A DNA stretch of 48,484 nucleotides from Botryllus schlosseri (lineage: Eukaryota): positions 40,550,001 through 40,598,484 of the forward strand of contig CM119372.1 in the NCBI GenBank assembly GCA_051294905.1. The letters are read 5' to 3'. Below are positions 7,439 through 48,484 of this stretch, one piece after another. Both the position numbers and the translations under genes were made by a program. The notes under the pieces were generated by a model. The model worked only from the letters and a program-made list of their open reading frames with translations, had not been told where the DNA came from and ran no database searches. The first letter of the stretch is position 1. Every line of letters begins with the position of its first letter.

Positions 7439-7456
7439 AGCGCCCGAGTTTTGGCC

Positions 7457-29149: not shown

Positions 29150-29620
29150 GGGTTAGGGTTAGGGTTAGGGTTAGGGTTAGGGTTAGCGTTAGGGTTAGGG
29201 TTAGGGTTAGGGTTAGGGTTAGGGTTAGGGTTAGGGTTAGGGTTAGGGTTAGGGTTAGGGTTAGGGTTAGGGTTAGGGTTAGGGTTAGGGTTAGGGTTAG
29301 GGTTAGGGTTAGGGTTAGGGTTAGGGTTAGGGTTAGGGTTAGGGTTAGGGTTAGGGTTAGGGTTAGGGTTAGGGTTAGGGTTAGGGTTAGGGTTAGGGTT
29401 AGGGTTAGGGTTAGGGTTAGGGTTAGGGTTAGGGTTAGGGTTAGGGTTAGGGTTAGGGTTAGGGTTAGGGTTAGGGTTAGGGTTAGGGTTAGGGTTAGGG
29501 TTAGGGTTAGGGTTAGGGTTAGGGTTAGGGTTAGGGTTAGGGTTAGGGTTAGGGTTAGGGTTAGGGTTAGGGTTAGGGTTAGGGTTAGGGTTAGGGTTAG
29601 GGTTAGGGTTAGGGTTAGGG
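29150..29620 (+). repeat. Internal (TTAGGG)n telomeric tract, ~78 repeats
   Basis: Pure TTAGGG run with one TTAGCG variant (C at 29187), in the same orientation as the terminal telomere. Confidence 0.99.
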
Positions 29621-29885
29621 ACTTTATTGGCGCCTTCATTTTGCGTTAAAACGTGTACGAGGTCTCATGATAATTCTCCGCCATCGTGAGCTGGTGGAGC
29701 CGCTCATGAATTTCGTACGGAGTGTAAGTGCGTCGCGCTCTCGACGTCGTGAAGGGGCCTTAGACGTATCATGATTGGCGCCACGATTTCGGAAGATTTA
29801 CCATTATTAATTCCGAAGCACGTTCAAACCTCTTTCCCCATGAATGACGATCAAAATAAAGAGTCAGAGAACAAAACTCTGTTTA

Positions 29886-32169
29886 TCAAGATTTATTATT
29901 GATTAGGAACGACTTGATCAATCTTAATTTTGAACGCATTTGTTGAAAAGTCAAATAGCATTCTGATTTATATTCGTGAACAATTTTGCTCAGTAGAGGT
30001 CCGCTGTCGTCATAAAATGCACGCAGGCGAACGTCTTTGATCAATTTCACGACTTGCTCGTTTGTCAAAGTGGTCTTGCTACCTCTCTGCCGGTTACATA
30101 TCGAGTCCGCCAGCTCCTCGACGTCATTACCTGCGCGTTTGAACGTGATCAGACATGCAATTCAGACGGTAATAGCAAATAGATTACCCTCATTTGTGAC
30201 GATCTTTGTGTCGCGGTCCGTAGCGATTAGAGGCTCCGAGCTAGATCCGTTTGAATGCATGTCATCGTCGGTGTCTAAAGTGGTGTCGTCCTTTCTTTCC
30301 GCCTCTGGTTGAACCGTGCTCGGGGCTGAAGTCGGTGTGACGATTTGTGTGTCCTGTTCCGTAGCGATTAAAGGCACTGAGGTAGCTGCGTTTGCTTGCA
30401 TATCATCCTCGTTGTGAAAATTTGTATCGTGCCTTGCTTGCGGATCTGGTTCAGCTGTAGTCGGGGTTGCGGTTGGTGATTCAAATGATCCTTAATTAAC
30501 AGTTGCGATCAGATGTATGACGTCGTAGTTTATTATGACTTTACATACCTTCATTCTGAGGAACGCTTGACGCGGCCAATTCCGAATATAGGTCGTCATG
30601 TGTACTTGACATGGCCATCCCGAGTAATTTCTTGCATAGAATCGCTCCGGCAGCCGCCCTCTTGGTTCTGCCTATTCCGTCATAGTGTCGACTCGCGATC
30701 TCTGTACTGTGGGACGAGGACATCGCGACATGATATTGTCCGATGTCGTCCAGCGAACTGGCCATCGTCGCGACTATTTTACGCAAATGCTGGTACGTGA
30801 GGCAGACTTCGTGGCGACCGAGATATTCCCCGACACAAACCGATAAATTTAGGAAGGGCTTGCCGTTGGAGTTCCGTAACGCTACTTCTTCTCGTGAAAA
30901 ATCCAAGTCTGGATTCGTTTGCTTGCAAATCTGAAATCGAAAAGAGGCTGGAGACCGCTCCATTACACGTTCACATCTTCGTAACACCTACCTGTTTGAA
31001 TCGTTCACAGTCTTGTCGACTCATTACTAACAAGCCCTGATTCGAAGGGCACTTGTTGTGGTCGACCTGTACGACTAACATTTCGGGATCGTTCACAGAA
31101 CGGACGGCGTGGCTAAGCTCGTATCCGGTCACTCTACGAAAATATGACAGTCTCGTGCCACTTTCAAGTCCAACCTGGATGATTGTCGCGGCCAAGCAAT
31201 CCCGCACGTTTTCGTTTGTTAACGGTTGATGGAGGTCTCTTTTAAACGTTTCGCTTTTGATCATTCTAGAAAAACACGCATATTAAACCTAAAACTTTAC
31301 GATATTTTAACCTTAGCACGAACCTTTTGATATTCGGCCAATTTTTATTGATGACGTCCATGTCGAAGGACAAACGTTTCTCGTGCTGCCGCTTTCTTCT
31401 TTTATTGGTCGCTCTAGAGTACGTCGCGATGATTTGTATGGCTCTCAGTTGTTTGTCCGGTGAAACCACTTTTTCCAACAATGCCGGATGGTGCATACGC
31501 GCAAATTCAAGAAATACCTTTAGCGACGTCAGGGTGTTGAAAATAGTGCTCGCGGACAGTGTCCCGTCGGCGTTAGAAATGTACGTGACTAATTCTTCCG
31601 GCTCGTCAACCACATACTTCTTGAACACTGATTTTAGTTTGCTGACGACCATTTTGGTGTTGGCTTCGTCGAGCGCTTGCACTTGGCGATGCCTTTCGTA
31701 CAGGGAGAGTAGCTGTAATAAACGGATCTGCATTATTTCGGTGAAAAGTGACACATTACCATCAGAGTTACTCACGCTTGAAAAGTCGGACTCGAAGGTC
31801 AACTTTTTAAAGTTTTCCTGGTAGGTCTCGCAACCTATCCCGAAGCCGTCGCGTATTTTATCGGAATGAATAATCCTCCAGTGGGTTGCTATATATGCCG
31901 TGGCTACTGATCTAGAGCAGAGACCACACCAAGACCGTGGACGACATTGCTTGGGATCGCGCAAGTAGCGAGCAGACCTGTGACACGTAATATTTATTTG
32001 CTTCTGGTTGTTATAAATAAGCCAACAACGATCTTACTCTTTAATTCTGTCCACGGACCACTTATGAACGTTACGAAGATGCCTCGTTCTATGACCTTTG
32101 GTTTGTATATGGCAAACTTGACACCTGTCGAGTCTGATTCTTTTCGTGGGTCGAATTGCAACGGGATCG
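29886..32169 (-). CDS. Spliced gene for a C2H2 zinc-finger + tyrosine recombinase (phage-integrase fold) protein, >=666 aa; start codon unresolved
   Basis: Exons 32169-32038, 31977-31312, 31265-30992, 30930-30549, 30490-30188 and 30130-29886 are joined in frame by GT-AG introns 32037-31978 (60 nt), 31311-31266 (46), 30991-30931 (61), 30548-30491 (58) and 30187-30131 (57). Zinc fingers: CQVC-x10-HLRNVH and CGLC-x11-HWRIIH. Core-binding-like segment: LSASTIFNTLTSLKVFLEF. Catalytic-type motifs: LESGTR (R), VVQVDHNK (K), TYQHLRKIVAT (R), VAMSSSHSTEIASRHY (H, Y). Confidence 0.85.
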
Positions 32170-32245
32170 CTACAATAGAAATATTAAAAATCGCGCCATG
32201 TTGAAGTTACCGGAGCAGAGAGAGTTATGGACCGAAAACCAACGA

Positions 32246-34630
32246 TTTTGGACTCGGTAAAAGCTATTTCGCCGAATCGCGCCACGCTTAAGCATAGGGA
32301 TTTCGAAATTAGAAGACATTTTCACTCACCCGACGACTTGAGATTCCATTATATGTTCTTGATGCACGGTAATCCACTCCAAACGTCCTTCTAACTCGAC
32401 AGTTCAATAGCATATGAGCGCGCGGCGAGAATTATCTGGAAAAAGATATTCCCGGGTCATTATTACGTCATAGATGGCCCGAAAATTTTTTTATCGAAAA
32501 TCGGTCTGGGGCCCGCCGAAACACGTTTTTTGACGATTTTTATGCATTTTGGGCGGTTGTTGACACTGTTTAAGGTCCTAAATCTCGCTGTGCAGGTAGC
32601 ATGCCAAGTCTACAAGACGCCTAAACCCGTTTTACGCGTAGCCGGCACGCACAACTACCAATATAGACGGTGCAGTACCCGCCGAAACGCTGTTTTGGAC
32701 AATTATTTTAATTTTGACCGACAATTGCGGAGCCGTCGTGCGGTTTGCGGCCCTAAATCTCGCTGTGCAGGTCGCGTGCCAAGTCTACAAGACGCCTAAA
32801 CCCGTTTTACGCGTAGCCGGCACGCACAACTACCAATATAGACGGTGCAGTACCCGCCGAAACGCTGTTTTGGACAATTATTTTAATTTTGACCGACAAT
32901 TGCGGAGCCGTCGTGCGGTTTGCGGCCCTAAATCTCGCTGTGCAGGTCGCGTGCCAAGTCTACAAGACGCCTAAACCCGTTTTACGCGTAGCCGGCACGC
33001 ACAACTACCAATATAGACGGTGCAGTACCCGCCGAAACGCTGTTTTGGACAATTATTTTAATTTTGACCGACAATTGCGGAGCCGTCGTGCGGTTTGCGG
33101 CCCTAAATCTCGCTGTGCAGGTCGCGTGCCAAGTCTACAAGACGCCTAAACCCGTTTTACGCGTAGCCGGCACGCACAACTACCAATATAGACGGTGCAG
33201 TACCCGCCGAAACGCTGTTTTGGACAATTATTTTAATTTTGACCGACAATTGCGGAGCCGTCGTGCGGTTTGCGGCCCTAAATCTCGCTGTGCAGGTCGC
33301 GTGCCAAGTCTACAAGACGCCTAAACCCGTTTTACGCCTAGCCGGCACGCACAACTACCAATATAGACGATGCAGTACCCGCCGAAACACGGTTTTGGAC
33401 TCGGTAAAAGCTATTTCGCCGAATCGCGCCACGCTAAAGTATGTGGATTTCACAACAAGAAGAAATTTTCACTCACCCGGTGACTTGAAATTCCAATAAA
33501 TGTTCCTGATGCACGGTAATCCTCTCACAACGTCCTCCCAACGCGACAGTTCAATAGCATATGAGCGCGCGGCGAGAATTATCTGGAAAAAGATATTCTC
33601 GGGTCATTATTACGTCATAGAGGGCCAGAAAATTTTTTTCTCGAAAATCGGTCTGGGGCCCGCCGAAACACGTTTTTTGACGATTTTTATGCCTTTTGGG
33701 CGGTTGTTGACACTCTTTGCGGCTCTAAATCTCGCTGTGGTTGTCGCGTGCCAAGTCTACAGGACGCCTCAACCCGTTTTACACGTAGCCGGCACGCACA
33801 ACTACCAATATAGACGATGCAGTACCCGCCGAAACGCTGTTTTGGACAATTATTTTAATTTTGACCGACAATTGCGGAGCGGCCGTGCTCTTTGCGGCTC
33901 TAAATCTCGCTGTGGTTGTCGCGTGCCAAGTCTACAAGACGCCTCAACCCGTTTTACGCGTAGCCGGCACGCACAACTACCAATATAGACGATGCAGTAC
34001 CCGCCGAAACACTGTTTTGGACAATTATTTTAATTTTGACCGACAATTGCGGAGCCGTCGTGCTCTTTGCGGCTTTAAATCTCGCTGTGGTTGTCGCGTG
34101 CCAAGTCTACAAGACGCCTCAACCCGTTTTACGCGTAGCCGGCACGCACAACTACCAATATAGACGGTGCAGTACCCGCCGAAACGCTGTTTTGGACAAT
34201 TATTTTAATTTTGACCGACAATTGCGGAGCCGTCGTGCGGTTTGCGGCCCTAAATCTCGCTGTGCAGGTCGCGTGCCAAGTCTACAAGACGCCTAAACCC
34301 GTTTTACGCCTAGCCGGCACGCACAACTACCAATATAGACGATGCAGTACCCGCCGAAACACGGTTTTGGACTCGGTAAAAGCTATTTCGCCGAATCGCG
34401 CCACGCTAAAGTATGTGGATTTCACAACAAGAAGAAATTTTCACTCACCCGGTGACTTGAAATTCCAATAAATGTTCCTGATGCACGGTAATCCTCTCAC
34501 AACGTCCTCCCAACGCGACAGTTCAATAGCATATGAGCGCGCGGCGAGAATTTTCTGAAAAAAGATATTCCCGGGTTATTATTACGTCATAGAGGGCCGG
34601 AAAATTTTTTTCCCGAAAATCGGTCTGGGC
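32246..34630. repeat. Composite tandem repeat: a ~300-bp block alternating with runs of 175-bp subrepeats (units of 1147 and 972 bp, plus a third block)
   Basis: The block TTTTGGACTCGGTAAAAGCTATTTCGCCGAATCGC starts at 32246, 33393 and 34365. The 175-bp period is visible in ORF repeats 32714/32889/33064/33239 and 33861/34036/34211. Confidence 0.95.
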
Positions 34631-34669
34631 CGATTTTTTTGAATTTTTTCGGGTTTTTGACCGACATTG

Positions 34670-35510
34670 CGGAGCCGTGACACTGTTTAAGGTCCCAAAT
34701 CTCGCTGTGGTTGTCTGGTGCAGGGCCTACAACAGGGACAGACCGCTTTTACGGGCCTCCGACAAGGACAGGGAGCGATATCGACGAAGCAGCACGCGCC
34801 GAAACACGGTTTTCGACCATTTTTGGAATTTTGCGCGACAATTACGGGGCCGTGACACTGTTTGAGGTCCTGAATTTCGCTGTGGTTGTCTGGTGCAGGG
34901 CCTACAACAGGGACAGACCGCTTTTACGGGTCTCCGACAAGGACAGGAAGCGATATCGACGAAGCAGCACGCGCCGAAACACGGTTTTCGACCATTTTTG
35001 GAATTTTGCGCGACAATTACGGGGCCGTGACACTGTTTGAGGTCCTGAATTTCGCTGTGGTTGTCTGGTGCAGGGCCTACAACAGGGACAGACCGCTTTT
35101 ACGGGCCTCCGACAAGGACAGGGAGCGATATCGACGAAGCAGCACGCGCCGAAACACGGTTTTCGACCATTTTTGGAATTTTGCGCGACAATTACGGGGC
35201 CGTGACACTGTTTGAGGTCCTGAATTTCGCTGTGGTTGTCTGGTGCAGGGCCTACAACAGGGACAGACCGCTTTTACGGGTCTCCGACAAGGACAGGAAG
35301 CGATATCGACGAAGCAGCACGCGCCGAAACACGGTTTTCGACCATTTTTGGAATTTTGCGCGACAATTACGGGGCCGTGACACTGTTTGAGGTCCTGAAT
35401 TTCGCTGTGGTTGTCTGGTGCAGGGCCTACAACAGGGACAGACCGCTTTTACGGGCCTCCGACAAGGACAGGGAGCGATATCGACGAAGCAGCACGCGCC
35501 GAAACACGGT
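34670..35510. repeat. Second, diverged 175-bp subrepeat family (~5 copies, alternating A/B variants)
   Basis: 175-bp period (34711/34886/35061/35236/35411). Variants GGGCCTCC..GGGAGCG and GGGTCTCC..GGAAGCG alternate. Shares TCGCTGTGGTTGTC and CGCCGAAACAC with the first 175-bp family. Confidence 0.95.
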
Positions 35511-35745
35511 TTTTCGCGATTTTTCCCAATTTTTTCGGGTTTTTGACCGGCGATTGCGGAGCAGTCACACTGATTCAGGGCCTGAATATCGCTGCGGTGG
35601 TCGGGTGCAGGGCTTACAAGACGCGGCAACCTCTCTTACTGGTCTCCCACACGTACAATATGGGGATTTCGGACTTGGTCGTTTCTCGCACTTCGTCCAT
35701 ACCTTAACATAGGGCCCATACCATAACACGGGCGGACCGCCTATA

Positions 35746-36625
35746 CTTGCTCGGATCGGTTCCAAACTTCGTGTGAGGGGTCTCATGGATGACTTTTTGC
35801 CGGCAAAAAAAATCAACTTTTGCCGAGGAAAATTTTGGACTTAGTCGTTTTTCGACCTCGCCCATACTTTAACATGGGGGCCTACGGTAGGTCGGCCGAA
35901 CTTGCTCGGATCGGTTCCAAACTTCGTGTGAGGGGTCTCGTGGATGACTTTTTGCCGGCAAAAAAAATCAACTTTTGCCGAGGAAAATTTTGGACTTAGT
36001 CGTTTTTCGACCTCGCCCATACTTTAACATGGGGGCCTACGGTAGGTCGGCCGAACTTGCTCGGATCGGTTCCAAACTTCGTGTGAGGGGTCTCGTGGAT
36101 GACTTTTGGCCGGCAAAAAAAATCAACTTTTGCCGAGGAAAATTTTGGACTTAGTCGTTTTTCGACCTCGCCCATACTTTAACATGGGGGCCTACGGTAG
36201 GTCGGCCGAACTTGCTCGGATCGGTTCCAAACTTCGTGTGAGGGGTCTCGTGGATGACTTTTTGCCGGCAAAAAAAATCAACTTTTGCCGAGGAAAATTT
36301 TGGACTTAGTCGTTTTTCGACCTCGCCCATACTTTAACATGGGGGCCTACGGTAGGTCGGCCGAACTTGCTCGGATCGGTTCCAAACTTCGTGTGAGGGG
36401 TCTCGTGGATGACTTTTGGCCGGCAAAAAAAATCAACTTTTGCCGAGGAAAATGTTGGACTTAGTCGTTTTTCGACCTCGCCCATACTTTAACATGGGGG
36501 CCTACGGTAGGTCGGCCGAACTTGCTCGGATCGGTTCCAAACTTCGTGTGAGGGGTCTCGTGGATGACTTTTGGCCGGCAAAAAAAATCAACTTTTGCCG
36601 AGGGAAATTTTGGACTTGGTCGTTT
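35746..36625. repeat. 155-bp tandem repeat (~5.7 copies)
   Basis: CTTGCTCGGATCGGTTCCAAACTTCGTGTGAGGGG starts at 35746, 35901, 36056, 36211, 36366 and 36521. Degenerate copies recur at ~38300-38560. Confidence 0.96.
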
Positions 36626-36629
36626 TTCC

Positions 36630-38280
36630 CGGGGGTTCGGACTTAGAAAAAATCCGAGTATTGTCGAAATTTTTTTTTCTCCGATTCCGATTTCCCGCAC
36701 ATCGGCGGACTCGTGGGAGCCCGTAGATCGCGAATACACCGTTTTCCGGGCGCTGGGAGGCCGTACGAGAAAGAAAAATTTTCACACTCGCTTTGGCATC
36801 AGGAGTCCATTTCGACTATCCGCGTAGCTCTAGGACGCACAGGAGCCGAGATACGAGTTTTTTGCGAATAGCTCGGCTCCTGTTCGGGCCAGACACACGC
36901 GGGACCCCTCGTTGGAAGCGGCGCAGCGAGACGAATCCGGGAAAAAAAAAAATTATCGAAATCGGACTTGCCGGAGCCGAGATATCTCCGGTTGAAGCGC
37001 GCCAAAATCGGACCTTTGACCGGCTCTGGAGGCCGAGCCGTTTGTCGGATCGGGATAATTCCTTTGCGGGGCGTCTTCAAACAGTGCGGGGAACGCGCCC
37101 GTGTGGTTTTCAGGCGAAAAAATTTTTTTTCGGACTTTAACTTTTTTATGATCTCGGCCCCGTGTTAAAGTATGGGGATTTCGGACTTGGAAAAAATCCG
37201 ACGAGGTCGAAAATTTTTTTTCTCCGATTTCGATTTCCAGCACACCGACGGACTCGTGGGAGCTCGTAGACCCCCGCTAGCCACTTTTCCGGTCGCCAGG
37301 AGGCCGCACGAGAAAGAAAAATTTTCACCCTTGCTTTGGCATCAGGAGTCCATTTCGACTATGCACGTAGCTCTAGGATGCACAGGAGCCGAGATACGAG
37401 TTTTTCGTGAATAGCTCGGCCCCTGTTCGGACCAGACCCACGCTGGACCCCTCGTTGGAAGCGGCGCAGCGAGACGAATCCGGGAAAAAAAAATTTTTGA
37501 AATCGGACACACCGGAGCCGAGATATCCCCGGTTAAAGCCCGCCGAAATCGGACCTTTGACCGGCTCTGGAGGCCGAGCCGTTTGTCGGATCGGGATAAT
37601 TCCTTTGCGGGGCGTCTTCAAACAGTGCGGGGAACGCGCCCGTGTGGTTTTCAGGCGAAAAAATTTTTTTTCGGACTTTAACTTTTTTATGATCTCGGCC
37701 CCGTGTTAAAGTATGGGGATTTCGGACTTGGAAAAAATCCGACGAGGTCGAAAATTTTTTTTCTCCGATTTCGATTTCCCGCACACCGACGGACTCGTGG
37801 GAGCTCGTAGACCCCCGCTAGCCACTTTTCCGGTCGCCAGGAGGCCGCACGAGAAAGAAAAATTTTCACCCTTGCTTTGGCATCAGGAGTCCATTTCGAC
37901 TATGCACGTAGCTCTAGGATGCACAGGAGCCGAGATACGAGTTTTTCGTGAATAGCTCGGCCCCTGTTTGGACCAGACCCACGCTGGACCCCTCGTTGGA
38001 AGCGGCGCAGCGAGACGAATCCGGGAAAAAAAAAATTTTCGAAATCGGACACACCGGAGCCGAGATATCCCCGGTTAAAGCCCGCCGAAATCGGACCTTT
38101 GACCGGCTCTGGAGGCCGAGCCGTTTGTCGGATCGGGATAATTCCTTTGCGGGGCGTCTTCAAACAGTGCGGGGAACGCGCCCGTGTGGTTTTTAGGTGA
38201 AAAATTTTTTTTCGGACTTTAACTTTTTCACGATCTCGGCCCCATGTTAAAGTATGGGGATTTCGGACTTGGAAAAAATC
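36630..38280. repeat. 541-bp tandem repeat (3 copies, the first more diverged)
   Basis: Identical ORF pairs 37146/37687 and 37172/37713; GCTTTGGCATCAGGAGTCCATTTCGACTAT occurs three times. Confidence 0.95.
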
Positions 38281-38734
38281 CGAGACCGAGTTGAGAGAAA
38301 GTTAAAGTCCGAGCGCCCATTCTTTAACATGGGAGCCTACGGTAGATCGGCTGGACTCGGTCCGATCGACTCCAAACTTCGTGTGCGGGGTCTTATGGAT
38401 GACTTTTGGCCGGCGAAAAAGATCGACTTTTTTCGAGGAAGATTTCGGACTTAGTCGTTTTTCGCACCTCGCCCATACCTTAACATAGGGCCCATACCTT
38501 GACACGGGCGGAACGCCTATAGTTGGTCGGATCGGCCCCAAACTTCGTGTGTGGGGTCCCGTGGGAGGCATTTTCGAAAAGTTTTTTTTTAATTATTTTT
38601 TATTTTTTCGGAAAAAAAAATTTATTTTCCGGGAAAAAAAATTTTCTTGGCCGGCGAAAATTTTCCGGCCCCCCGGCCCGGGTGCGACCCTGAAAAACGA
38701 CTAAGTAGAAAAAAGTCACCAGGGTTTCCGAAAA

Positions 38735-38756
38735 ATTACTAATATAGGAAGGGGCG
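38735..38756 (+). promoter_or_regulatory. Possible RNA polymerase I initiation-site-like motif (TTACTAATATAGGAAGGGG)
   Basis: Lies at the boundary between A/T-tract-rich spacer-like repeats and a GC-rich region containing rRNA fragments. Resembles the TATA(G)G-rich rDNA start motifs of plants and insects. Position and motif resemblance only. Confidence 0.3.
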
Positions 38757-40704
38757 CGCGCCCGGCGCCTGACGGGAGGCCGGGAGCGTAACGTTGAATC
38801 TGCCGGCGAGAGGGGCTGTCGGCGCGGCGGAATTGATCCGTCGTCACCGGTTGGAGCGAAAGCATATGGGGGTGCGAAGCCAGCACTAATCACGGGTCGG
38901 CGAACCTCGAGTCGCGGGTTTAAACGTTGCGTGTCGCCAATCGCTGCATAGAGCGAGCTTGCCCGGTATGCCGTAGACGGCGGGATATGGATGATAGTGA
39001 CCCTACACCTGTCATACAGCCATGAGGCATACCGGAGAGCGGACTCAATAAATGCTGCGCGGACGCGACGCGTTGTACTTCGGGCCTCGCGGCCCAGACC
39101 CTTCCTACGTAGCCTTGCGGCGTCGCCGAGGAGAGAATCCGGCGTCGAGAAGCCGGCAGACCGGTGTGTCGCACTCCGGCGAGCCGGCGGAGCTAAATTA
39201 TGAGCTGGGGCAGCAAAAATTCAGGCGTCGGTCGAGGGGGTAGGCCGGCGTCGCGCGAGTACGCGGCGTGGACGCGAAACGGCGGATACGCCTTTTAATC
39301 GAGAGCGTAAGTACCTACGCGGGCGCCGAGAACGGCGGCGCCGGTGTCGGAGGTAGCCGACACCCTGGTCCCCGCCCAGGGGCGGACCTCGCAGTGCGCG
39401 AGATATATCATTCAAGTGTCTACCCAAGGCATGGTAAGTGCCTTATGAACGTGCCCCGCCGCTAGAAGTGAAATTCGTCGTTCGGCGGTGGTACGAACAG
39501 TTGCGGGAACGCTCGCCAAGGGCGTTTTCATTAATCGAGAGCGAAGGTCGGTGCGTGGGCCGTAATCCCGCGCGTTGTCCAGATACGTTGCGGATGACGA
39601 TGAGACGACTCTTGACGGTGGATACTCTCCAACCGCGAATCGTGCGTGTGGAGGCCTTCGCGGGCCGCCCACGGTAAGGACAAACCTGAATGTTTGGGCG
39701 TCGGGTCGCAAGGCTCGTCGTTCTACGGTTTACGAGCGCTGTCGTCAATGCTCGGGGTCCGGGCCCTCGCCGTTTGTCGACCCGGTCGTCGCTATCGCGC
39801 CACCGTGCGCGGTACGCTCGGCCGGAGCGACTTTCGGCTTCTCGGGCGCGGCTCCGTGGCGATTGGCGGCGGTCAGAATCGAAGTGGCGAAGAGAGTTCA
39901 AATCCAGGCGGGACCGTCTTGAGGATAAACGATAAGGTCCTGTCGTCAGCTCGGGGTCGCTTTGTGTCGGGCGCGGGGGCGCGCTTCGGCGTCGGCGGGG
40001 CATCGCGCCCTGCCGCGTCGTTGCGCGCGAGTCGCACCGTCGAATGGGCTTCCCGGGGCGGGCCACGACCTGCTCGCGGTCGATGGTCTAGGTAAGGTTG
40101 TCGCGAAAGTTCGTCCGACTCCGGTTACGATTCGGGAACTGCGGTCCGTACGGCCCGTGAGTCCCGCGCTCTGCCGGAAGCGTCCGTTCGCCTCGCGACT
40201 CCTTGACCTCTCACGAGAACACGGACCTATGAACGATTATAGCGTGAACGCAAGTTGTCGGGCGAAACGAGAACCCGCAGCGATACTAGATGCCGCTCCT
40301 GCCGATTGCGGTCGGTCGGTCGGTGTTGTGAAAGAGCGTTTACGCTTGCCCGAAAGATGGTGGATAGGCGTCGCGGCCAGCCGCGCGCCTCTCGCGACGT
40401 GGCCTTCCTGGAGCCGATACATGCGATTGAGCGCCGACCGTCCGCGGAAGGCGTGCAGTTATCGAAAATGCTCCGGATAACCACGCGTAAACGGCAACTT
40501 GGGTGTTTCGTACACCGCTGCGACCGGATCAGGGTTCGATCCTAGAGAGGGAGCGCGAAATTGTGGATGGTGGTGCATAAATCGAAAGGCGCCTGTCAGG
40601 CGTCGCGTCGCCAAGCGCGTCGCATGGTGAAACCGAACGAGGTGTAAAATCATTTGTGAGCTGGGTGCACGTGACGAAAATCAGATATATGCAATTTAAG
40701 CGTG

Positions 40705-41890
40705 GCGAAAAAAATCGTTGAATTCCTTGCGGTGGAGTCGGTGTGACGCAGCCGGTCAGGATTGGCCGTTAAGGTGTAGCGAAAGTCGTCAATTGCCACG
40801 TAAGAATGCGCGGCGGCCTTAAGCAAGTCGCCGACGCGATGCGGAGCGCGAGCGGGGAACGGGTCCGAACGCCTCTAGGACCCGGTCTTCGGCCGTGGCG
40901 AACGAAACAGAATGCGAGGTGGCCTTAAGCAAGTCGCCGACGCGATGCGGAGCGCGAGCGGGGAACGGGTCCGAACGCCTCTAGAACCCGGTCTTTCGCC
41001 GCGGCGAACGAGAAAAAATGAGCGGTGGCCTTGAGCAAGTCACTGGTCGCAGAGAACGTTTTCATTGAGAAACTGTGGCGAGAAAAATCGTTGAATTCCT
41101 TGCGGTGGAGTCGGTGTGACGCAGCCGGTCAGGATTGGCCGTTAAGGTGTAGCGAAAGTCGTCAATTGCCACGTAAGAATGCGCGGCGGCCTTAAGCAAG
41201 TCGCCGACGCGATGCGGAGCGCGAGCGGGGAACGGGTCCGAACGCCTCTAGGACCCGGTCTTCGGCCGCGGCGAACGAAACAGAATGCGAGGTGGCCTTA
41301 AGCAAGTCGCCGACGCGATGCGGAGCGCGAGCGGGGAACGGGTCCGAACGCCTCTAGGACCCGGTCTTCGGCCGCGGCGAACGAAACAGAATGCGAGGTG
41401 GCCTTAAGCAAGTCGCCGACGCGATGCGGAGCGCGAGCGGGGAACGGGTCCGAACGCCTCTAGAACCCGGTCTTTCGCCGCGGCGAACGAGAAAAAATGA
41501 GCGGTGGCCTTGAGCAAGTCACTGGTCGCAGAGAACGTTTTCATTGAGAAACTGTGGCGAGAAAAATCGTTGAATTCCTTGCGGTGGAGTCGGTGTGACG
41601 CAGCCGGTCAGGATTGGCCGTTAAGGTGTAGCGAAAGTCGTCAATTGCCACGTAAGAATGCGCGGCGGCCTTAAGCAAGTCGCCGACGCGATGCGGAGCG
41701 CGAGCGGGGAACGGGTCCGAACGCCTCTAGGACCCGGTCTTCGGCCGCGGCGAACGAAACAGAATGCGAGGTGGCCTTAAGCAAGTCGCCGACGCGATGC
41801 GGAGCGCGAGCGGGGAACGGGTCCGAACGCCTCTAGGACCCGGTCTTTCGCCGCGGCGAACGAGAAAAAATGAGCGGCGGCCTTGAGCAA
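40705..41890. repeat. Nested tandem repeat: 373/479-bp units containing 2-3 copies of a 106-bp subrepeat
   Basis: TCGTTGAATTCCTTGCGG at 40715, 41088 and 41567; GGCCTTAAGCAAGTCGCCGACG at 40815/40921, 41188/41294/41400 and two further copies. Confidence 0.94.
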
Positions 41891-42159
41891 GCTGCCGACC
41901 AGAAGCAATGCGGGGCGCAAGCGTTCGTACGACTCTGGCTTCGTGTTGGGAACCGCGGGTGCGATCGGCCCGTGAGTCCCGCATGTTGTCGGGACAGTCC
42001 GTTCGCCTTGCGCAGTTAAGGAGAGTGCGTTCTCTCGTTAGTCTCCAAGGTACAACGCCGGTCGAGGGCGAGGCCGGCGCGGAAAACGAACTTTGCGGGG
42101 CGTGGCAACCCTGGCCTCCCCCGCGTCGAAGGACGCGGTAGCGCCGGGAAGCGAACTCG

Positions 42160-42653
42160 TAGCAGTGCGGGTTTTCTGTACTGAGAAATTGACTCTGGGT
42201 AAAGCAGCTCTGCCCAGTGCTCTGAATGTCAAAGTGAAGAAATTCAGCCGAGCAAGCGAAGGATGGGGCCGTTCATCAGCCCTGAATGGTGAGCACGAGT
42301 AGAAGCAGTGCCGCGAAACCGAAAGATGGTTAACAGTACGGGTACTCCGCACTGAGAAAATGACTCTGGGTAATGCGAGCTCTGCCCAGTGCTCTGAATG
42401 TCAAAGTGAAGAAATTCAGCCGAGCAAGCGAAGGATGGGGCCGTTCATCAGCCCTGAATGGTGAGCACGAGTAGAAGCAGTGCCGCGAAACCGAAAGATG
42501 GTTAACAGTACGGGTACTCCGCACTGAGAAAATGACTCTGGGTAATGCGAGCTCTGCCCAGTGCTCTGAATGTCAAAGTGAAGAAATTCAGCCGAGCAAG
42601 CGAAGGATGGGGCCGTTCATCAGCCCGGAATGGTGAGCACGAGTAGAAGCAGT
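42160..42653. repeat. 172-bp tandem repeat (~3 copies), each carrying a 38-nt conserved 28S rRNA segment
   Basis: TCTGCCCAGTG at 42209, 42381 and 42553 (period 172). Confidence 0.95.
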
Positions 42654-43299
42654 GAAGTAGAAGTGGGAGACGGTCGCTGATCTTGTCGGGATGCGGGCAG
42701 CCGTTCCTACTCCGCTTCGGGCTGTCGCGGTCGTCTATCCGGAAGGGCCCCCGGATAGACGGACGCGAGCCCGAAGCGGAGTCGGGGCGAAACACCTATT
42801 CACAACGGTGCTGCCTGCGCCCGCCTAAATCAGCAGCCGTCGTTGGAAGTAGCAAATATTTTCGTTTTTGATTTCGTGCTTGAAAGTGTGTCCCCGCGCA
42901 CGCCCCGTTAATTTGGGGCGCGCGCGGGGACTTTTTTTTTCGTCAGAGTCCGAAAAAGATCGCCACGGTTCTTGGGTGGTTTTTGGTCGGCGATCGGGCC
43001 TCGCTGCGCGCTTATTCTTTTCGTTGGAGTCCGAAAAAAATCACCGGGGTTTGGCTCGGTCTTCGTCGGCCGAACTTCAAGTATTTTTCGATCTCGACCC
43101 TGGCTTAAAGTGGAGAGATCTCGGACTTAGAAAATATTCGACAAAAAAAACTTCAACTTTTTTCGAGGTGGGTAGGCATTAACTGTTTTATACACGTGTC
43201 TATTTTTTTTTTCGATTTCAGGGGTGGAAATAATGTGAACACCTATCTTCAAAGTGAAAAGGTCCTTCCACGAAACGATGAAACAAACAGCAGCTTCGT

Positions 43300-43420
43300 T
43301 CACCCGTATTTATTTCTAATCAGACAATTTTTGATAAATCTGATTTTTTCGCGCATCTGCTGAAAACTCAGGCAGCACTCGCTCTTGTAGCCGTGTACAA
43401 TTTTGCTCAGCAGATGACCA
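43300..43420 (-). pseudogene. Truncated 3' fragment of a paralogue of the YR gene
   Basis: GHLLSKIVHGYKSECCLSFQQMREKIRFIKNCLIRNKYG* aligns without gaps to the YR C-terminus GPLLSKIVHEYKSECYLTFQQMRSKLRLIKSFLINNKS* (29886-30002). Confidence 0.88.
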
Positions 43421-43487
43421 CGCCTAGGTGGTTTAGAACGAAAAAGAAAGTAGTCGAAAAACTCCAACTGTTTTCGACCTCGACCCA

Positions 43488-45275
43488 TGTTAAGAGATAG
43501 GGAGATTTTCATGATAGGCGCCAGCTCATGATGTCGCCACCAGATACGACTTGGTCGTTTTTCGACCTAGCCCACACAAAGTAACATAGACGGGCATTTC
43601 AGACTTGCTCATATCATCTCCAGAATCCTGTGTGGGCTCTCGTTGGTGACTTTTGGCCGGCAAAAAATTGGAACTTTAGCCGGAAAAAATTCCGGACTCA
43701 TGATAGGCGCCACGTATTGAAGACGCAAATTTCGTGTCATGTTGAACCGTTGAACGCTACGGGAGCAGTAGAACGCGACCAGGGGGTTTGGAACAACGAC
43801 CCACGCATTCCTCACGGTCGAATTCACCTACGATAGGGATTTCGGACCTGGTCGATTTTCATGATGGGCGCCAGTCATGATGGCGCCATCAGATTAAGCA
43901 TAAGACCTGATCGATTTTCATGATCGGCGCCACTCATGATCGTCGCCACGAATTCAAGCATACGCCAATACTGTGACATTTCGACTTTATCCGGAAAAAT
44001 TCCGGACTCCGTCACGCTTTCGTGATCGGCTCCAGGTATCGAAGGCGCCAAATTCCGGGTATCGAAGGCACCAAACGCATGTCTGTTAAGAGATAGGGAG
44101 ATTTTCATGATAGGCGCCAGCTCATGATGTCGCCACCAGATACGACTTGGTCGTTTTTCGACCTAGCCCACACAAAGTAACATAGACGGGCATTTCAGAC
44201 TTGCTCATATCATCTCCAGAATCCTGTGTGGGCTCTCGTTGGTGACTTTTGGCCGGCAAAAAATTGGAACTTTAGCCGGAAAAAATTCCGGACTCATGAT
44301 AGGCGCCACGTATTGAAGACGCAAATTTCGTGTCATGTTGAACCGTTGAACGCTACGGGAGCAGTAGAACGCGACCAGGGGGTTTGGAACAACGACCCAC
44401 GCATTCCTCACGGTCGAATTCACCTACGATAGGGATTTCGGACCTGGTCGATTTTCATGATGGGCGCCAGTCATGATGGCGCCATCAGATTAAGCATAAG
44501 ACCTGATCGATTTTCATGATCGGCGCCACTCATGATCGTCGCCACGAATTCAAGCATACGCCAATACTGTGACATTTCGACTTTATCCGGAAAAATTCCG
44601 GACTCCGTCACGCTTTCGTGATCGGCTCCAGGTATCGAAGGCGCCAAATTCCGGGTATCGAAGGCACCAAACGCATGTCTGTTAAGAGATAGGGAGATTT
44701 TCATGATAGGCGCCAGCTCATGATGTCGCCACCAGATACGACTTGGTCGTTTTTCGACCTAGCCCACACAAAGTAACATAGACGGGCATTTCAGACTTGC
44801 TCATATCATCTCCAGAATCCTGTGTGGGCTCTCGTTGGTGACTTTTGGCCGGCAAAAAATTGGAACTTTAGCCGGAAAAAATTCCGGACTCATGATAGGC
44901 GCCACGTATTGAAGACGCAAATTTCGTGTCATGTTGAACCGTTGAACGCTACGGGAGCAGTAGAACGCGACCAGGGGGTTTGGAACAACGACCCACGCAT
45001 TCCTCACGGTCGAATTCACCTACGATAGGGATTTCGGACCTGGTCGATTTTCATGATGGGCGCCAGTCATGATGGCGCCATCAGATTAAGCATAAGACCT
45101 GATCGATTTTCATGATCGGCGCCACTCATGATCGTCGCCACGAATTCAAGCATACGCCAATACTGTGACATTTCGACTTTATCCGGAAAAATTCCGGACT
45201 CCGTCACGCTTTCGTGATCGGCTCCAGGTATCGAAGGCGCCAAATTCCGGGTATCGAAGGCACCAAACGCATGTC
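43488..45275. repeat. 596-bp telomere-adjacent tandem repeat, exactly 3 copies
   Basis: TGTTAAGAGATAGGGAG starts at 43488, 44084 and 44680; the third copy ends ...AAACGCATGTC at 45275, directly before AAGGGTTAGGG. Confidence 0.97.
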
Positions 45276-45276
45276 A

Positions 45277-48200
45277 AGGGTTAGGGTTAGGGTTAGGGTT
45301 AGGGTTAGGGTTAGGGTTAGGGTTAGGGTTAGGGTTAGGGTTAGGGGTTAGGGTTAGGGTTAGGGTTAGGGTTAGGGTTAGGGTTAGGGTTAGGGTTAGG
45401 GTTAGGGTTAGGGTTAGGGTTAGGGTTAGGGTTAGGGTTAGGGTTAGGGTTAGGGTTAGGGTTAGGGTTAGGGTTAGGGTTAGGGTTAGGGTTAGGGTTA
45501 GGGTTAGGGTTAGGGTTAGGGTTAGGGTTAGGGTTAGGGTTAGGGTTAGGGTTAGGGTTAGGGTTAGGGTTAGGGTTAGGGTTAGGGTTAGGGTTAGGGT
45601 TAGGGTTAGGGTTAGGGTTAGGGTTAGGGTTAGGGTTAGGGTTAGGGTTAGGGTTAGGGTTAGGGTTAGGGTTAGGGTTAGGGTTAGGGTTAGGGTTAGG
45701 GTTAGGGTTAGGGTTAGGGTTAGGGTTAGGGTTAGGGTTAGGGTTAGGGTTAGGGTTAGGGTTAGGGTTAGGGTTAGGGTTAGGGTTAGGGTTAGGGTTA
45801 GGGTTAGGGTTAGGGTTAGGGTTAGGGTTAGGGTTAGGGTTAGGGTTAGGGTTAGGGTTAGGGTTAGGGTTAGGGTTAGGGTTAGGGTTAGGGTTAGGGT
45901 TAGGGTTAGGGTTAGGGTTAGGGTTAGGGTTAGGGTTAGGGTTAGGGTTAGGGTTAGGGTTAGGGTTAGGGTTAGGGTTAGGGTTAGGGTTAGGGTTAGG
46001 GTTAGGGTTAGGGTTAGGGTTAGGGTTAGGGTTAGGGTTAGGGTTAGGGTTAGGGTTAGGGTTAGGGTTAGGGTTAGGGTTAGGGTTAGGGTTAGGGTTA
46101 GGGTTAGGGTTAGGGTTAGGGTTAGGGTTAGGGTTAGGGTTAGGGTTAGGGTTAGGGTTAGGGTTAGGGTTAGGGTTAGGGTTAGGGTTAGGGTTAGGGT
46201 TAGGGTTAGGGTTAGGGTTAGGGTTAGGGTTAGGGTTAGGGTTAGGGTTAGGGTTAGGGTTAGGGTTAGGGTTAGGGTTAGGGTTAGGGTTAGGGTTAGG
46301 GTTAGGGTTAGGGTTAGGGTTAGGGTTAGGGTTAGGGTTAGGGTTAGGGTTAGGGTTAGGGTTAGGGTTAGGGTTAGGGTTAGGGTTAGGGTTAGGGTTA
46401 GGGTTAGGGTTAGGGTTAGGGTTAGGGTTAGGGTTAGGGTTAGGGTTAGGGTTAGGGTTAGGGTTAGGGTTAGGGTTAGGGTTAGGGTTAGGGTTAGGGT
46501 TAGGGTTAGGGTTAGGGTTAGGGTTAGGGTTAGGGTTAGGGTTAGGGTTAGGGTTAGGGTTAGGGTTAGGGTTAGGGTTAGGGTTAGGGTTAGGGTTAGG
46601 GTTAGGGTTAGGGTTAGGGTTAGGGTTAGGGTTAGGGTTAGGGTTAGGGTTAGGGTTAGGGTTAGGGTTAGGGTTAGGGTTAGGGTTAGGGTTAGGGTTA
46701 GGGTTAGGGTTAGGGTTAGGGTTAGGGTTAGGGTTAGGGTTAGGGTTAGGGTTAGGGTTAGGGTTAGGGTTAGGGTTAGGGTTAGGGTTAGGGTTAGGGT
46801 TAGGGTTAGGGTTAGGGTTAGGGTTAGGGTTAGGGTTAGGGTTAGGGTTAGGGTTAGGGTTAGGGTTAGGGTTAGGGTTAGGGTTAGGGTTAGGGTTAGG
46901 GTTAGGGTTAGGGTTAGGGTTAGGGTTAGGGTTAGGGTTAGGGTTAGGGTTAGGGTTAGGGTTAGGGTTAGGGTTAGGGTTAGGGTTAGGGTTAGGGTTA
47001 GGGTTAGGGTTAGGGTTAGGGTTAGGGTTAGGGTTAGGGTTAGGGTTAGGGTTAGGGTTAGGGTTAGGGTTAGGGTTAGGGTTAGGGTTAGGGTTAGGGT
47101 TAGGGTTAGGGTTAGGGTTAGGGTTAGGGTTAGGGTTAGGGTTAGGGTTAGGGTTAGGGTTAGGGTTAGGGTTAGGGTTAGGGTTAGGGTTAGGGTTAGG
47201 GTTAGGGTTAGGGTTAGGGTTAGGGTTAGGGTTAGGGTTAGGGTTAGGGTTAGGGTTAGGGTTAGGGTTAGGGTTAGGGTTAGGGTTAGGGTTAGGGTTA
47301 GGGTTAGGGTTAGGGTTAGGGTTAGGGTTAGGGTTAGGGTTAGGGTTAGGGTTAGGGTTAGGGTTAGGGTTAGGGTTAGGGTTAGGGTTAGGGTTAGGGT
47401 TAGGGTTAGGGTTAGGGTTAGGGTTAGGGTTAGGGTTAGGGTTAGGGTTAGGGTTAGGGTTAGGGTTAGGGTTAGGGTTAGGGTTAGGGTTAGGGTTAGG
47501 GTTAGGGTTAGGGTTAGGGTTAGGGTTAGGGTTAGGGTTAGGGTTAGGGTTAGGGTTAGGGTTAGGGTTAGGGTTAGGGTTAGGGTTAGGGTTAGGGTTA
47601 GGGTTAGGGTTAGGGTTAGGGTTAGGGTTAGGGTTAGGGTTAGGGTTAGGGTTAGGGTTAGGGTTAGGGTTAGGGTTAGGGTTAGGGTTAGGGTTAGGGT
47701 TAGGGTTAGGGTTAGGGTTAGGGTTAGGGTTAGGGTTAGGGTTAGGGTTAGGGTTAGGGTTAGGGTTAGGGTTAGGGTTAGGGTTAGGGTTAGGGTTAGG
47801 GTTAGGGTTAGGGTTAGGGTTAGGGTTAGGGTTAGGGTTAGGGTTAGGGTTAGGGTTAGGGTTAGGGTTAGGGTTAGGGTTAGGGTTAGGGTTAGGGTTA
47901 GGGTTAGGGTTAGGGTTAGGGTTAGGGTTAGGGTTAGGGTTAGGGTTAGGGTTAGGGTTAGGGTTAGGGTTAGGGTTAGGGTTAGGGTTAGGGTTAGGGT
48001 TAGGGTTAGGGTTAGGGTTAGGGTTAGGGTTAGGGTTAGGGTTAGGGTTAGGGTTAGGGTTAGGGTTAGGGTTAGGGTTAGGGTTAGGGTTAGGGTTAGG
48101 GTTAGGGTTAGGGTTAGGGTTAGGGTTAGGGTTAGGGTTAGGGTTAGGGTTAGGGTTAGGGTTAGGGTTAGGGTTAGGGTTAGGGTTAGGGTTAGGGTTA

Positions 48201-48484
48201 GGGTTAGGGTTAGGGTTAGGGTTAGGGTTAGGGTTAGGGTTAGGGTTAGGGTTAGGGTTAGGGTTAGGGTTAGGGTTAGGGTTAGGGTTAGGGTTAGGGT
48301 TAGGGTTAGGGTTAGGGTTAGGGTTAGGGTTAGGGTTAGGGTTAGGGTTAGGGTTAGGGTTAGGGTTAGGGTTAGGGTTAGGGTTAGGGTTAGGGTTAGG
48401 GTTAGGGTTAGGGTTAGGGTTAGGGTTAGGGTTAGGGTTAGGGTTAGGGTTAGGGTTAGGGTTAGGGTTAGGGTTAGGGTTAGA
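45277..48484 (+). repeat. Terminal telomere (TTAGGG)n, ~534 repeats
   Basis: TTAGGG run to the end of the sequence, with the G-rich strand running toward the end; one TTAGGGG variant at ~45341-45347. Confidence 0.99.

Follow-up and report, generated by a model that had tools for sequence, protein, structure and literature searches.

Worn remains of ribosomal DNA units inside a putative recombinase-encoding mobile element at telomere repeats of Botryllus schlosseri

Why should DNA near a chromosome end carry fragments of 18S and 28S rRNA on one strand, seemingly out of order? A first-pass annotation of the window (the whole 48,484-nucleotide stretch analysed here, on Botryllus schlosseri contig CM119372.1, hereafter C2) had described positions 38990-42865 as a scrambled mosaic, and had proposed either repeatedly shuffled ribosomal DNA (rDNA) debris or a selected rRNA-mimic transcript carried by an element. 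We aligned the window to the host 45S unit on contig C28 and scored each piece against 100 nulls. We read the out-of-order rRNA pieces as relics of worn rDNA units, lodged in a recombinase-encoding mobile element that is placed precisely within telomere repeats.

The pieces named in the annotation all lie on the + strand in the order that it gave. Nine rDNA pieces are at or near significance against the host unit, on the + strand throughout; the best opposite-strand match to that unit (score 38.4) is within the null (mean 35.7, maximum 50.8). Run 1 (39229-40373, about 69-76% identical to the host unit) is colinear with it, passing from the 3′ end of the 5′ETS through 18S nt 4 (39229-39409) to 18S 902-1000 (39450-39549; 76/100, reached by 0/100 nulls), ITS2 12-240 (39643-39872), 28S 391-579 (39891-40082) and 28S 810-905 (40185-40283). 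The second of these is the mid-18S piece annotated at 39459-39548. The 28S piece annotated at 40349 could be located (28S 974-1043, at 40298-40362) as a weak match whose score is reached by 32/100 nulls, and the 5.8S 5′ end in run 1 is a weak match that does not beat the null. Run 2 (40399-42170, +) is a second ascending series, with 18S 152-211 (40399-40462; 1/100 nulls), a weak match to 18S 258-274, and the annotated early-18S piece at 40528-40554, which agrees with 18S 377-403 at 24/27 positions and is borderline (6/100 nulls). These are followed by ITS1 (40831-40887), amplified as 106/373/479-bp repeats; it exceeds the null with the class-B rDNA variant alone (score 51.4; null maximum 46). 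Next comes 28S ~705-800 for a second time, in an old copy 26% diverged from its run-1 counterpart, so that this region is represented once per run. The first pass had overlooked the larger pieces: the 5′ETS/18S start, ITS2, 28S 391-579, 28S 810-905, 18S 152-211 and ITS1.

The nine pieces take 1 step back against 4 expected at random (P=0.0014), in a count that left out the weak pieces (5.8S 5′ end; 28S 974-1043, 1031-1046, 1288-1344 and 1684-1711; 18S 258-274 and 1278-1294), and the claim of scrambling is not borne out. Nor is the cargo an ordinary pseudogene colinear with one host unit, having two runs, one real break at which the order resets, and one region present twice. Because the two ascending runs are separated by a single step back, preceded by a host-type promoter and 5′ETS and followed by a 3′ETS-like hairpin and T-run, the body looks like two fused tandem rDNA units eroded by deletion. 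What survives of the debris proposal is that the pieces are rDNA-derived, carried within an element and not simply colinear; two colinear deletion series in tandem replace repeated shuffling. Only 516/5704 mature-rRNA bases are represented in the mosaic. Alignment to the host unit found neither the 18S/ITS1 nor the ITS2/28S junction in the cargo, which rules out a cargo keeping all processing junctions. A 28S deletion breakpoint in common with class B was also rejected: run 1 stops near 1043-1055 and class B at 1063, and the downstream sequence differs.

Beyond run 2, each copy of a 172-bp repeat (42180-42654, +, 2.8 copies) holds a 45-nt piece of host 28S 2490-2534 (43/45, about 95-98%; 0/100 nulls), which stops about 33 nt upstream of an RT-encoding insertion site in host 28S on C16. 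The annotation had tied this repeat to the mosaic through a recurring 11-mer, which alone is at chance level (0.75 expected in the cargo); it had also allowed that a 38-nt 28S piece might be all that aligns, and several pieces do. An Rfam scan of the window gave no SSU, LSU or 5.8S match above the gathering score, and so no functional rRNA gene by that measure. Its sub-threshold matches were mir-9242 (the tail hairpin), SNORD38 and LSU (E 0.27, the 28S piece of the repeat), with nothing rRNA-like in 39150-40950. miRNA and snoRNA readings were rejected, the matches being sub-threshold, with one further chance match in 39150-40950.

The mosaic belongs to an element of 15,656 bp (29621-45276) between telomere tracts of C2, and related elements of 15-19 kb form arrays. 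To the left, an internal telomere tract (29149-29620, +, TTAGGG x 78.7) provides the left half of the target and ends in an AGGG core; the left end of the element (29621-29637, +) contains an 11-bp arm (29627-29637) that is the inverted partner of an arm at the right (45256-45266). Inward of a recombinase-like gene lie 175-bp tandem arrays (32577-35513), with no counterpart in the canonical C28 rDNA spacer stretch examined, then 155-bp and about 540-bp repeats (35745-38353, +) common with the host rDNA intergenic spacer at about 85-95%. A host-type rDNA promoter with the first ~415 nt of the 5′ETS follows (38354-39161, +), also missed by the first pass and 94% identical to the host over 38354-39154; position and conservation suggest a putative Pol I start near 38745 (+). 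Downstream of the mosaic are a long GC-rich hairpin (42713-42778, +; z -6.3), in which the C16 and C9 copies have pair-preserving changes, and a terminal hairpin with T-run (42887-42940, +) whose pairing is kept (P(broken)=0.0025) and whose position and shape, with a weak sequence match, are those of the host 28S 3′ end/3′ETS hairpin. About three ~596-bp spacer-related repeats (43490-45276, +) reach the right end, CATGTCA, after which the AGGG core and terminal telomere (45277-48484, +, TTAGGG x 534) complete the chromosome-scale contig. Between its ends the element holds a full Pol I-type frame of spacer repeats, promoter, 5′ETS, body, 3′ hairpin and T-run.

This element has fixed ends, an AGGG core common with the telomere repeat, and inverted arms round its joined ends. 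In the genome 20 left ends were found: 8 non-tandem, 11 tandem and 1 with telomere repeats at the junction. All 8 non-tandem ends directly follow TTAGGG (left junction GGG^TTA), in tracts down to 8-9 nt, and the flanks beyond differ. The 11 tandem left ends meet a right end via one common AGGG core between the inverted arms, the insertion point being fixed in the tandem clusters, and at one array junction about 31 telomere repeats stand at exactly the tandem-junction point. The window-type right end abuts telomere repeats on C2, C4 and C114 and inside C30. The arms match at 10/11 positions (chance about 0.005); AGGG at both termini forms a 4-bp direct repeat, and no TIRs or long repeats occur beyond the subterminal arms. 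A 12-mer right-end motif has 47 genome matches, 16 of them in the element; of the remaining 31, the two that we looked at were unrelated. A single metagenome match to the junction motif was set aside as chance, as it lies inside unrelated coding sequence.

The recombinase-like gene (30541-32140, -) comprises at least three open frames: a SAM-like part (31266-32033, -), a frame with the first catalytic Arg (30971-31282, -) and one with H-x-x-R, H and Y (30541-30987, -). We place candidate GT-AG introns at about 31266-31311 and 30931-30991 (-), and a C2H2-like motif was read by eye further upstream. GTRLS, HLRK, SH and HY are conserved across most aligned frames, and R...H-x-x-R...H/W...Y are what we take to be the catalytic residues of the tyrosine recombinase (YR) superfamily. 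This pattern, together with an integrase/topoisomerase IB fold, leads us to predict a tyrosine recombinase. The predicted fold of a relative on C9 (pLDDT 70) matched XerA (Z 9.9, rmsd 3.8, 166 aligned), and 13/13 structure matches with Z>=8 were recombinases or type IB topoisomerases. Foldseek gave a best E of 0.018, which is not significant, with nearly all listed rows in the integrase/topoisomerase IB fold family; an ESM Atlas cluster matched at 0.93, of whose members 36% carry PF00589, is a lead only. The C2H2 and SAM-like N-terminal parts gave weak matches only (E 0.044 and 0.017). Pfam (including DUF3504 and every other YR family), PDB sequence and 90%-cluster protein searches with the frames returned no significant match; distant relatives are unnamed or uncharacterised animal proteins, none was found in the viral contigs searched, and dispersed relatives in the genome are without rDNA. 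Three diverged pairs with usable dS gave dN/dS of 0.30, 0.21 and 0.19, the comparisons spanning dS 0.19-1.6, so that the element encodes a protein of predicted YR fold under purifying selection. It has no RT-sized frame, no other long frame and no viral gene that we could see.

Sister copies carry rDNA of three ages. In the C22 copy, whose YR is at dS 0.015 from that of the window, the 18S is 99.7% identical to the host (5 differences); in the C30, C132 and C16 copies the 18S is at 96% and the 28S is deleted; the window mosaic, at about 70-78%, is the oldest. The conserved part of the cargo is its frame, the core promoter and 3′ hairpins. Old-lineage copies retain 34-35/40 positions of the -44..-5 promoter block and 20-22/40 just upstream, and the window has a host-type promoter (38-40/40) ahead of an old body; the core promoter has been either retained or renewed. 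A word search of sequencing runs listed none recorded as RNA; runs labelled as three other organisms contain 0.21-0.44 of the words and rows guessed to be RNA up to 0.35, which are leads only.

We propose, with a probability of roughly 60%, that the mosaic stretch forms the transcribed-region cargo of a Crypton-like YR DNA element. Such an element would target telomeres and take up Pol I units repeatedly, its body eroding neutrally. The predicted YR would excise the unit as a circle, which would recombine into TTAGGG tracts or into the element's own junction and thereby give head-to-tail arrays. Fresh rDNA would be gained by recombination with host spacer and promoter sequence, after which the body would decay; in the window, two tandem units would have merged and each then shed pieces, a course of duplication followed by loss, before local repeat expansion. 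Promoter and terminator would be the parts retained, putatively for access to rDNA replication or amplification or to nucleolar chromatin, and in circles and arrays the terminator would keep read-through from reaching the YR gene, which points the other way. The order of the rRNA-like pieces would as such have no function. Several observations count against this proposal. The C2, C4 and C114 copies are 99.8% identical and may have spread by subtelomere recombination; copies on C5, C22, C16 and C3 end elsewhere, at points of telomere-repeat addition; and class-C copies, with only one right end seen, have different ends. The youngest YR pairs have dN/dS of 0.57 and 0.66, and the rDNA-free relatives and the lack of a significant match in Pfam, PDB sequence or Foldseek also weigh here. 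Gene conversion alone could explain the promoter likeness, and kept structure in ITS2 and the tail hairpin is not predicted by pure neutrality.

Alternatively, a YR gene may once have landed beside rDNA spacer near a chromosome end, the block then spreading passively by subtelomere recombination, unequal exchange and telomere healing while the recombinase moves no rDNA. We consider this unlikely, given one fixed left end on differing flanks (some with only 8-9 nt of telomere sequence), a bare-core reciprocal junction and a tract-containing junction within one array, the inverted arms, and purifying selection on the YR.

A selected Pol I-made non-coding RNA is more doubtful still. Such an rRNA mimic or decoy might act in nucleolar tethering or small-RNA production, or might titrate factors acting on 28S near the retrotransposon insertion site. 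The promoter and 3′ hairpin/T-run look intact, one 28S piece is far closer to the host than the remainder, and the same mosaic adjoins two YR lineages separated by dS 1.6. In the tail hairpin 2 double changes occur where 0.2 would be expected (P about 0.014-0.02), and ITS2 double changes reach P=0.015 against the host and 0.010 against class B, all uncorrected for multiple comparisons. Hairpins can, however, self-correct without selection, and the ITS2 compensations may predate capture. Excess pairing conservation is lacking from the main body in 4/5 copy comparisons and from the 5′ETS, 18S and D2 pieces; most windows fold like shuffles. Copies have lost or replaced large parts of the cargo, and few mature-rRNA bases remain. 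Between C49 and C16, run 1 has diverged by 4.5% and the four-fold sites of the recombinase genes by 5.4%, and because divergence of the cargo between copies is thus about neutral, the mimic proposed in the first pass finds little support.

It is very improbable that the host has domesticated the element as a means to amplify or redistribute variant rDNA, with a functional class-B 18S and mosaic copies as non-autonomous dead ends. The class-B 18S has 60 differing positions, grouped in few regions (variance/mean 4.6), scores 1670.5 bits against 1675.9 for host 18S and belongs to an array of 11 or more units, but class-B 28S lacks nt 1064-2874 and 2945-3144, and the clustering may only reflect capture from older or foreign functional rDNA.

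How does the element we favour compare with known systems? A captain-family YR (DUF3435) is expected as the first gene of Starships; here the YR gene points toward the left end in the window class and follows the cargo in class C. Starships resemble our element as cargo-carrying YR elements, and their circular intermediate, joined at short microhomology, has been demonstrated; they are described as fungal with protein-gene cargo, whereas ours is animal, with non-coding Pol I cargo and a telomere target (bioRxiv 10.64898/2026.09.21.753150). Cryptons, as far as the available part of their description goes, share a YR as sole recognised enzyme, no long terminal repeats, 4-bp terminal direct repeats and a proposed circular intermediate (Kojima and Jurka 2011, PMC3212892). 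Our element has short terminal direct repeats (AGGG), no TIRs or long repeats and no reverse transcriptase; it differs from Cryptons (PMC3212892) in its telomere-repeat target, size, arrays, Pol I unit and lack of a DUF3504 match, and is likened to them by features. Endogenous nimaviruses show YR-linked insertion in telomere repeats and concatemers across telomere tracts, and their telomere-type YR has C2H2 and SAM-like N-terminal parts, the layout that weak matches suggest here; in the account available, they are viruses of large size (pemoniviruses, 300-360 kb) that sit in crustacean TAACC repeats (PMC10871703). Ours, by contrast, is 15.7 kb with a TTAGGG target, rDNA cargo and no viral gene seen. 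TATE of Leishmania braziliensis likewise forms YR-encoding tandem clusters at a fixed telomeric-hexamer site, GGG^TTA, identical to our left junction, but is treated as a VIPER/DIRS-like retroelement, whereas our element has no RT/RNase H ORF; the available part of that account mentions no rDNA cargo (PMC6681497). Among rDNA-containing transposable elements (Cassandra/Ajax, SINE3, SINE28, Pokey), an rDNA promoter is kept in step with the host (Cassandra, 5S) or 28S/IGS fragments are carried; the table consulted is limited to promoters of 5S, fragments of 28S and repeats of the IGS, and names neither a YR element nor a complete 45S/Pol I unit (PMC10946416). Among the papers listed by literature searches outside subscription journals and Repbase, no title or abstract opening described a YR element with 45S rDNA.

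The larger result is the carrier element; the mosaic alone is of modest interest. New chromosome-end rDNA clusters have been ascribed, in the part of the source available, to ordinary recombination and not to mobile elements (PMC10946416). Fresher rDNA in the sister copies suggests a route by which ribosomal gene clusters could pass between chromosome ends, and a promoter-to-terminator rDNA unit bracketed by element ends, a telomere site signature and three cargo ages in one genome make transposition as that route directly testable. The element also provides, for Pol I, a parallel to the 5S-promoter tracking of Cassandra, and its predicted YR is a candidate eukaryotic integrase for TTAGGG. More tentatively, this may be an active animal telomere-specific recombinase element whose purpose is to transport entire Pol I units. 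Such a mobile and selfish nucleolar organiser would excise as an rDNA-like circle, ride host rDNA amplification, land in TTAGGG and keep its promoter current with that of the host; one class would supply a variant 18S or, in the window class, a structured decoy RNA. If true, this would provide a natural telomere-targeting integrase for large cargo and a direct transposition mechanism for 'jumping NORs'.

The 40.6-Mb contig ends in the window (the genome is 495 Mb, with TTAGGG telomeres), where a 337-bp satellite (1–29149, with an inversion point near 7440–7457) is followed by an internal telomere tract (29149–29620), a 15,656-bp block holding the rRNA-like cargo and the terminal telomere (45277–48484). 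A related satellite (83%) flanks the copy on contig C4. We read the block, with a probability of roughly 0.6, as a telomere-targeted tyrosine-recombinase (YR) element with eroding captured rDNA. The YR gene (30541–32140, minus strand) has frames split by putative GT–AG introns; neither Pfam nor a PDB sequence search recognised these frames. A model (pLDDT 70) of a C9 relative, folded from its natural frame and an alignment of 26 sequences, matches XerA with a Z of 9.9, and every one of the 13 structure matches at Z ≥ 8 belongs to the tyrosine recombinases or the type IB topoisomerases. The gene is under purifying selection, with dN/dS of 0.30 in class B (copies on C30, C132 and C16), 0.21 on C3 and 0.19 in class C (C49, C16 and C9); the two youngest pairs gave 0.57 and 0.66, on few changes. 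At 29886–30161 and 30162–30491 (minus strand) lies a 91-aa short frame, kept in all three classes, with a 141-bp acidic repeat frame before it; class C has a second paralogue upstream of YR. The 91-aa frame may encode a small DNA-binding protein or supply additional exons of the YR gene.

Among the 20 left ends found, all eight non-tandem ones follow TTAGGG, with differing flanks and some tracts of only 8–9 nt; 11 are tandem, joined to a right end as CATGTCA-AGGG-ACTTTATT with one AGGG only; and the last, from the C30 array, carries about 31 telomere repeats at the exact junction point. On either side of the junction are imperfect inverted arms of 11 bp. Given how tyrosine recombinases work, this is the pattern expected for a circle integrating at a 4-bp core. 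Starship circles are joined likewise, at a short microhomology (bioRxiv 10.64898/2026.09.21.753150). The element would leave as a circle, which would then enter telomere repeats. Other copies are cut short at varied points by telomere addition. Class-C copies share a recurrent left end of their own, which also follows TTAGGG; with YR placed behind the cargo, they show the same order circularly permuted. At C3:1–27459, two YR units, stacked and bearing long 175-bp arrays, lack an rDNA body; a telomere tract truncates one of them in its spacer repeats and leads into the next left end.

The cargo forms a series of three ages. In the C22 copy, whose YR hardly differs from that of the window (dS 0.015), the 18S has five differences from the host's, the 5.8S is identical and the 28S is cut at nt 915 by telomere. 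Its 175-bp array is interrupted by a 14.6-kb mirror-symmetric non-coding insertion (C22:13075–27729), which is bounded on each side by 123-bp and 202-bp repeats in mirror image and contains no frame of at least 200 aa. Class-B units, at least 11 of them in the C30 array, carry a 96% 18S (C30:25031–26855, minus strand; also on C132 and at C16:22229050–22230873), adjoining a 28S that has lost about 2 kb (1064–2874 and 2945–3144). The 60 differences of this 18S from that of the host cluster in few regions and leave the Rfam score almost unchanged, which suggests a second, constrained-looking 18S type. The window class and class C carry the mosaic cargo. The window copy is a recombinant of A/B-type ends and YR, a host-type promoter and a class-C body; cargo would have been swapped through common spacer or promoter sequence. 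It is unlikely that the block is passive debris, that is, subtelomeric rDNA with no recombinase role in moving it. Canonical rDNA units examined on C28, C13 and C16 lack YR, and dispersed YR relatives lack rDNA. Ordinary arrays also give rise to deletion variants: 18S 1–1630 is missing from two units in the host array at C28:85001–105000, and 28S 2142–2818 from one at C13:25061477–25064522. On C16 (22274506–22280962 and 22295184–22298072), an insertion encoding an RT frame of 1149 aa (PF00078, E 1e-32; shorter copy in the next unit) breaks 28S copies at nt 2567/2573 and is presumably R2-like, given its position.

We called rRNA pieces by local alignment to the host 45S unit (C28: 18S 64718–66541, 5.8S 66847–67000, 28S 67283–71008) against a Markov null. 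The first-pass annotation had described scrambled 18S and 28S fragments on the plus strand. The strand holds, opposite-strand matches being within the null; the order is not simply colinear, but neither is it random: the nine pieces step back once, where a random order would give four such steps (P = 0.0014). Run 1 (39229–40373) reads 5′ETS end to 18S nt 4, 18S 902–1000, ITS2 12–240, 28S 391–579 and 28S 810–905; then follow 18S 152–211, 18S 377–403 (borderline, its score reached by 6 of 100 nulls), ITS1 (significant against the class-B variant only) and three copies of 28S 2490–2534. Weaker pieces mostly fit the two runs, except for weak ones close to the 3′ end, which leave room for some local shuffling. 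In both runs there is a 28S 705–800-like stretch, the copies 26% diverged, which argues for an origin from two ancestral units and not from a single transposed block. The region upstream, 38354–39154, is host promoter and 5′ETS (94% identity); on the downstream side, a hairpin and T-run resemble those of the host 28S end/3′ETS. Only 516 of 5,704 mature-rRNA bases are represented. The cargo is thus a promoter-to-terminator unit. Its body looks like two rDNA units that fused and lost most of their sequence, with repeats expanding afterwards, and the two runs would originate by duplication and loss.

The mosaic recurs on C4 and C114 at 99% and, whole or partial, on C49, C5, C16, C11 and C9 at about 89–97%. 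Its body evolves at about the neutral rate: when C49 is compared with C16, 50 of 1,100 run-1 sites differ (4.5%) versus 11 of 203 four-fold sites (5.4%) in the adjoining recombinase gene, with 3.6% in upstream DNA and 7.9% in the tail. This rate, and the deletion or replacement of large parts in some copies, make a selected rRNA mimic, which the annotation had offered beside shuffled debris, quite improbable, even though pairing is kept in ITS2 (pair-preserving change above a shuffled null, P = 0.015 and 0.010), the 3′ hairpin (P(broken) = 0.0025) and the tail hairpin (pair-preserving change, P about 0.014–0.02; all uncorrected). No such excess was found in 5′ETS, 18S or D2 pieces, and the body had one in only one of five copy comparisons; double changes summed against the host were 9 versus 3.8 ± 1.8. 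Because cargo ITS2, D2 and ITS1 are nearer to class-B than to host rDNA, some compensation is possibly older than capture. The block just before the putative start matches the host at 34–35 of 40 positions even in the old lineage, versus 20–22 of 40 immediately upstream, and in the window copy a host-type promoter stands before an old body. The frame is maintained; the body mostly drifts. This Pol I frame might conceivably be kept for rDNA replication or amplification, for nucleolar chromatin, or by gene conversion alone. The 45-nt 28S piece (2490–2534) has 95–98% identity to the host in every copy. It stops about 33 nt short, on the upstream side, of the C16 site of the RT-encoding insertions, and may be a later capture or selected. 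At a chromosome end, a class-C mosaic copy is immediately preceded by promoter/5′ETS and 18S 1–1244 with 97.8% identity to the host (C5:28198102–28200955).

The element as read here, YR-encoding and telomere-targeted, resembles Cryptons and Starships in its YR, short core and presumed circle. It shares the telomere repeat as target with TATE and telomeric nimaviruses but, unlike them, has no RT and no viral genome, respectively, and belongs to neither. Like Cassandra, it tracks an rDNA promoter. A review's section on rDNA in transposable elements (PMC10946416) names neither an entire 45S unit nor any YR element. Our literature search, over the titles and opening abstract lines of openly available papers, found no YR element carrying 45S rDNA. 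The importance of the finding comes almost entirely from the carrier and the cargo series.
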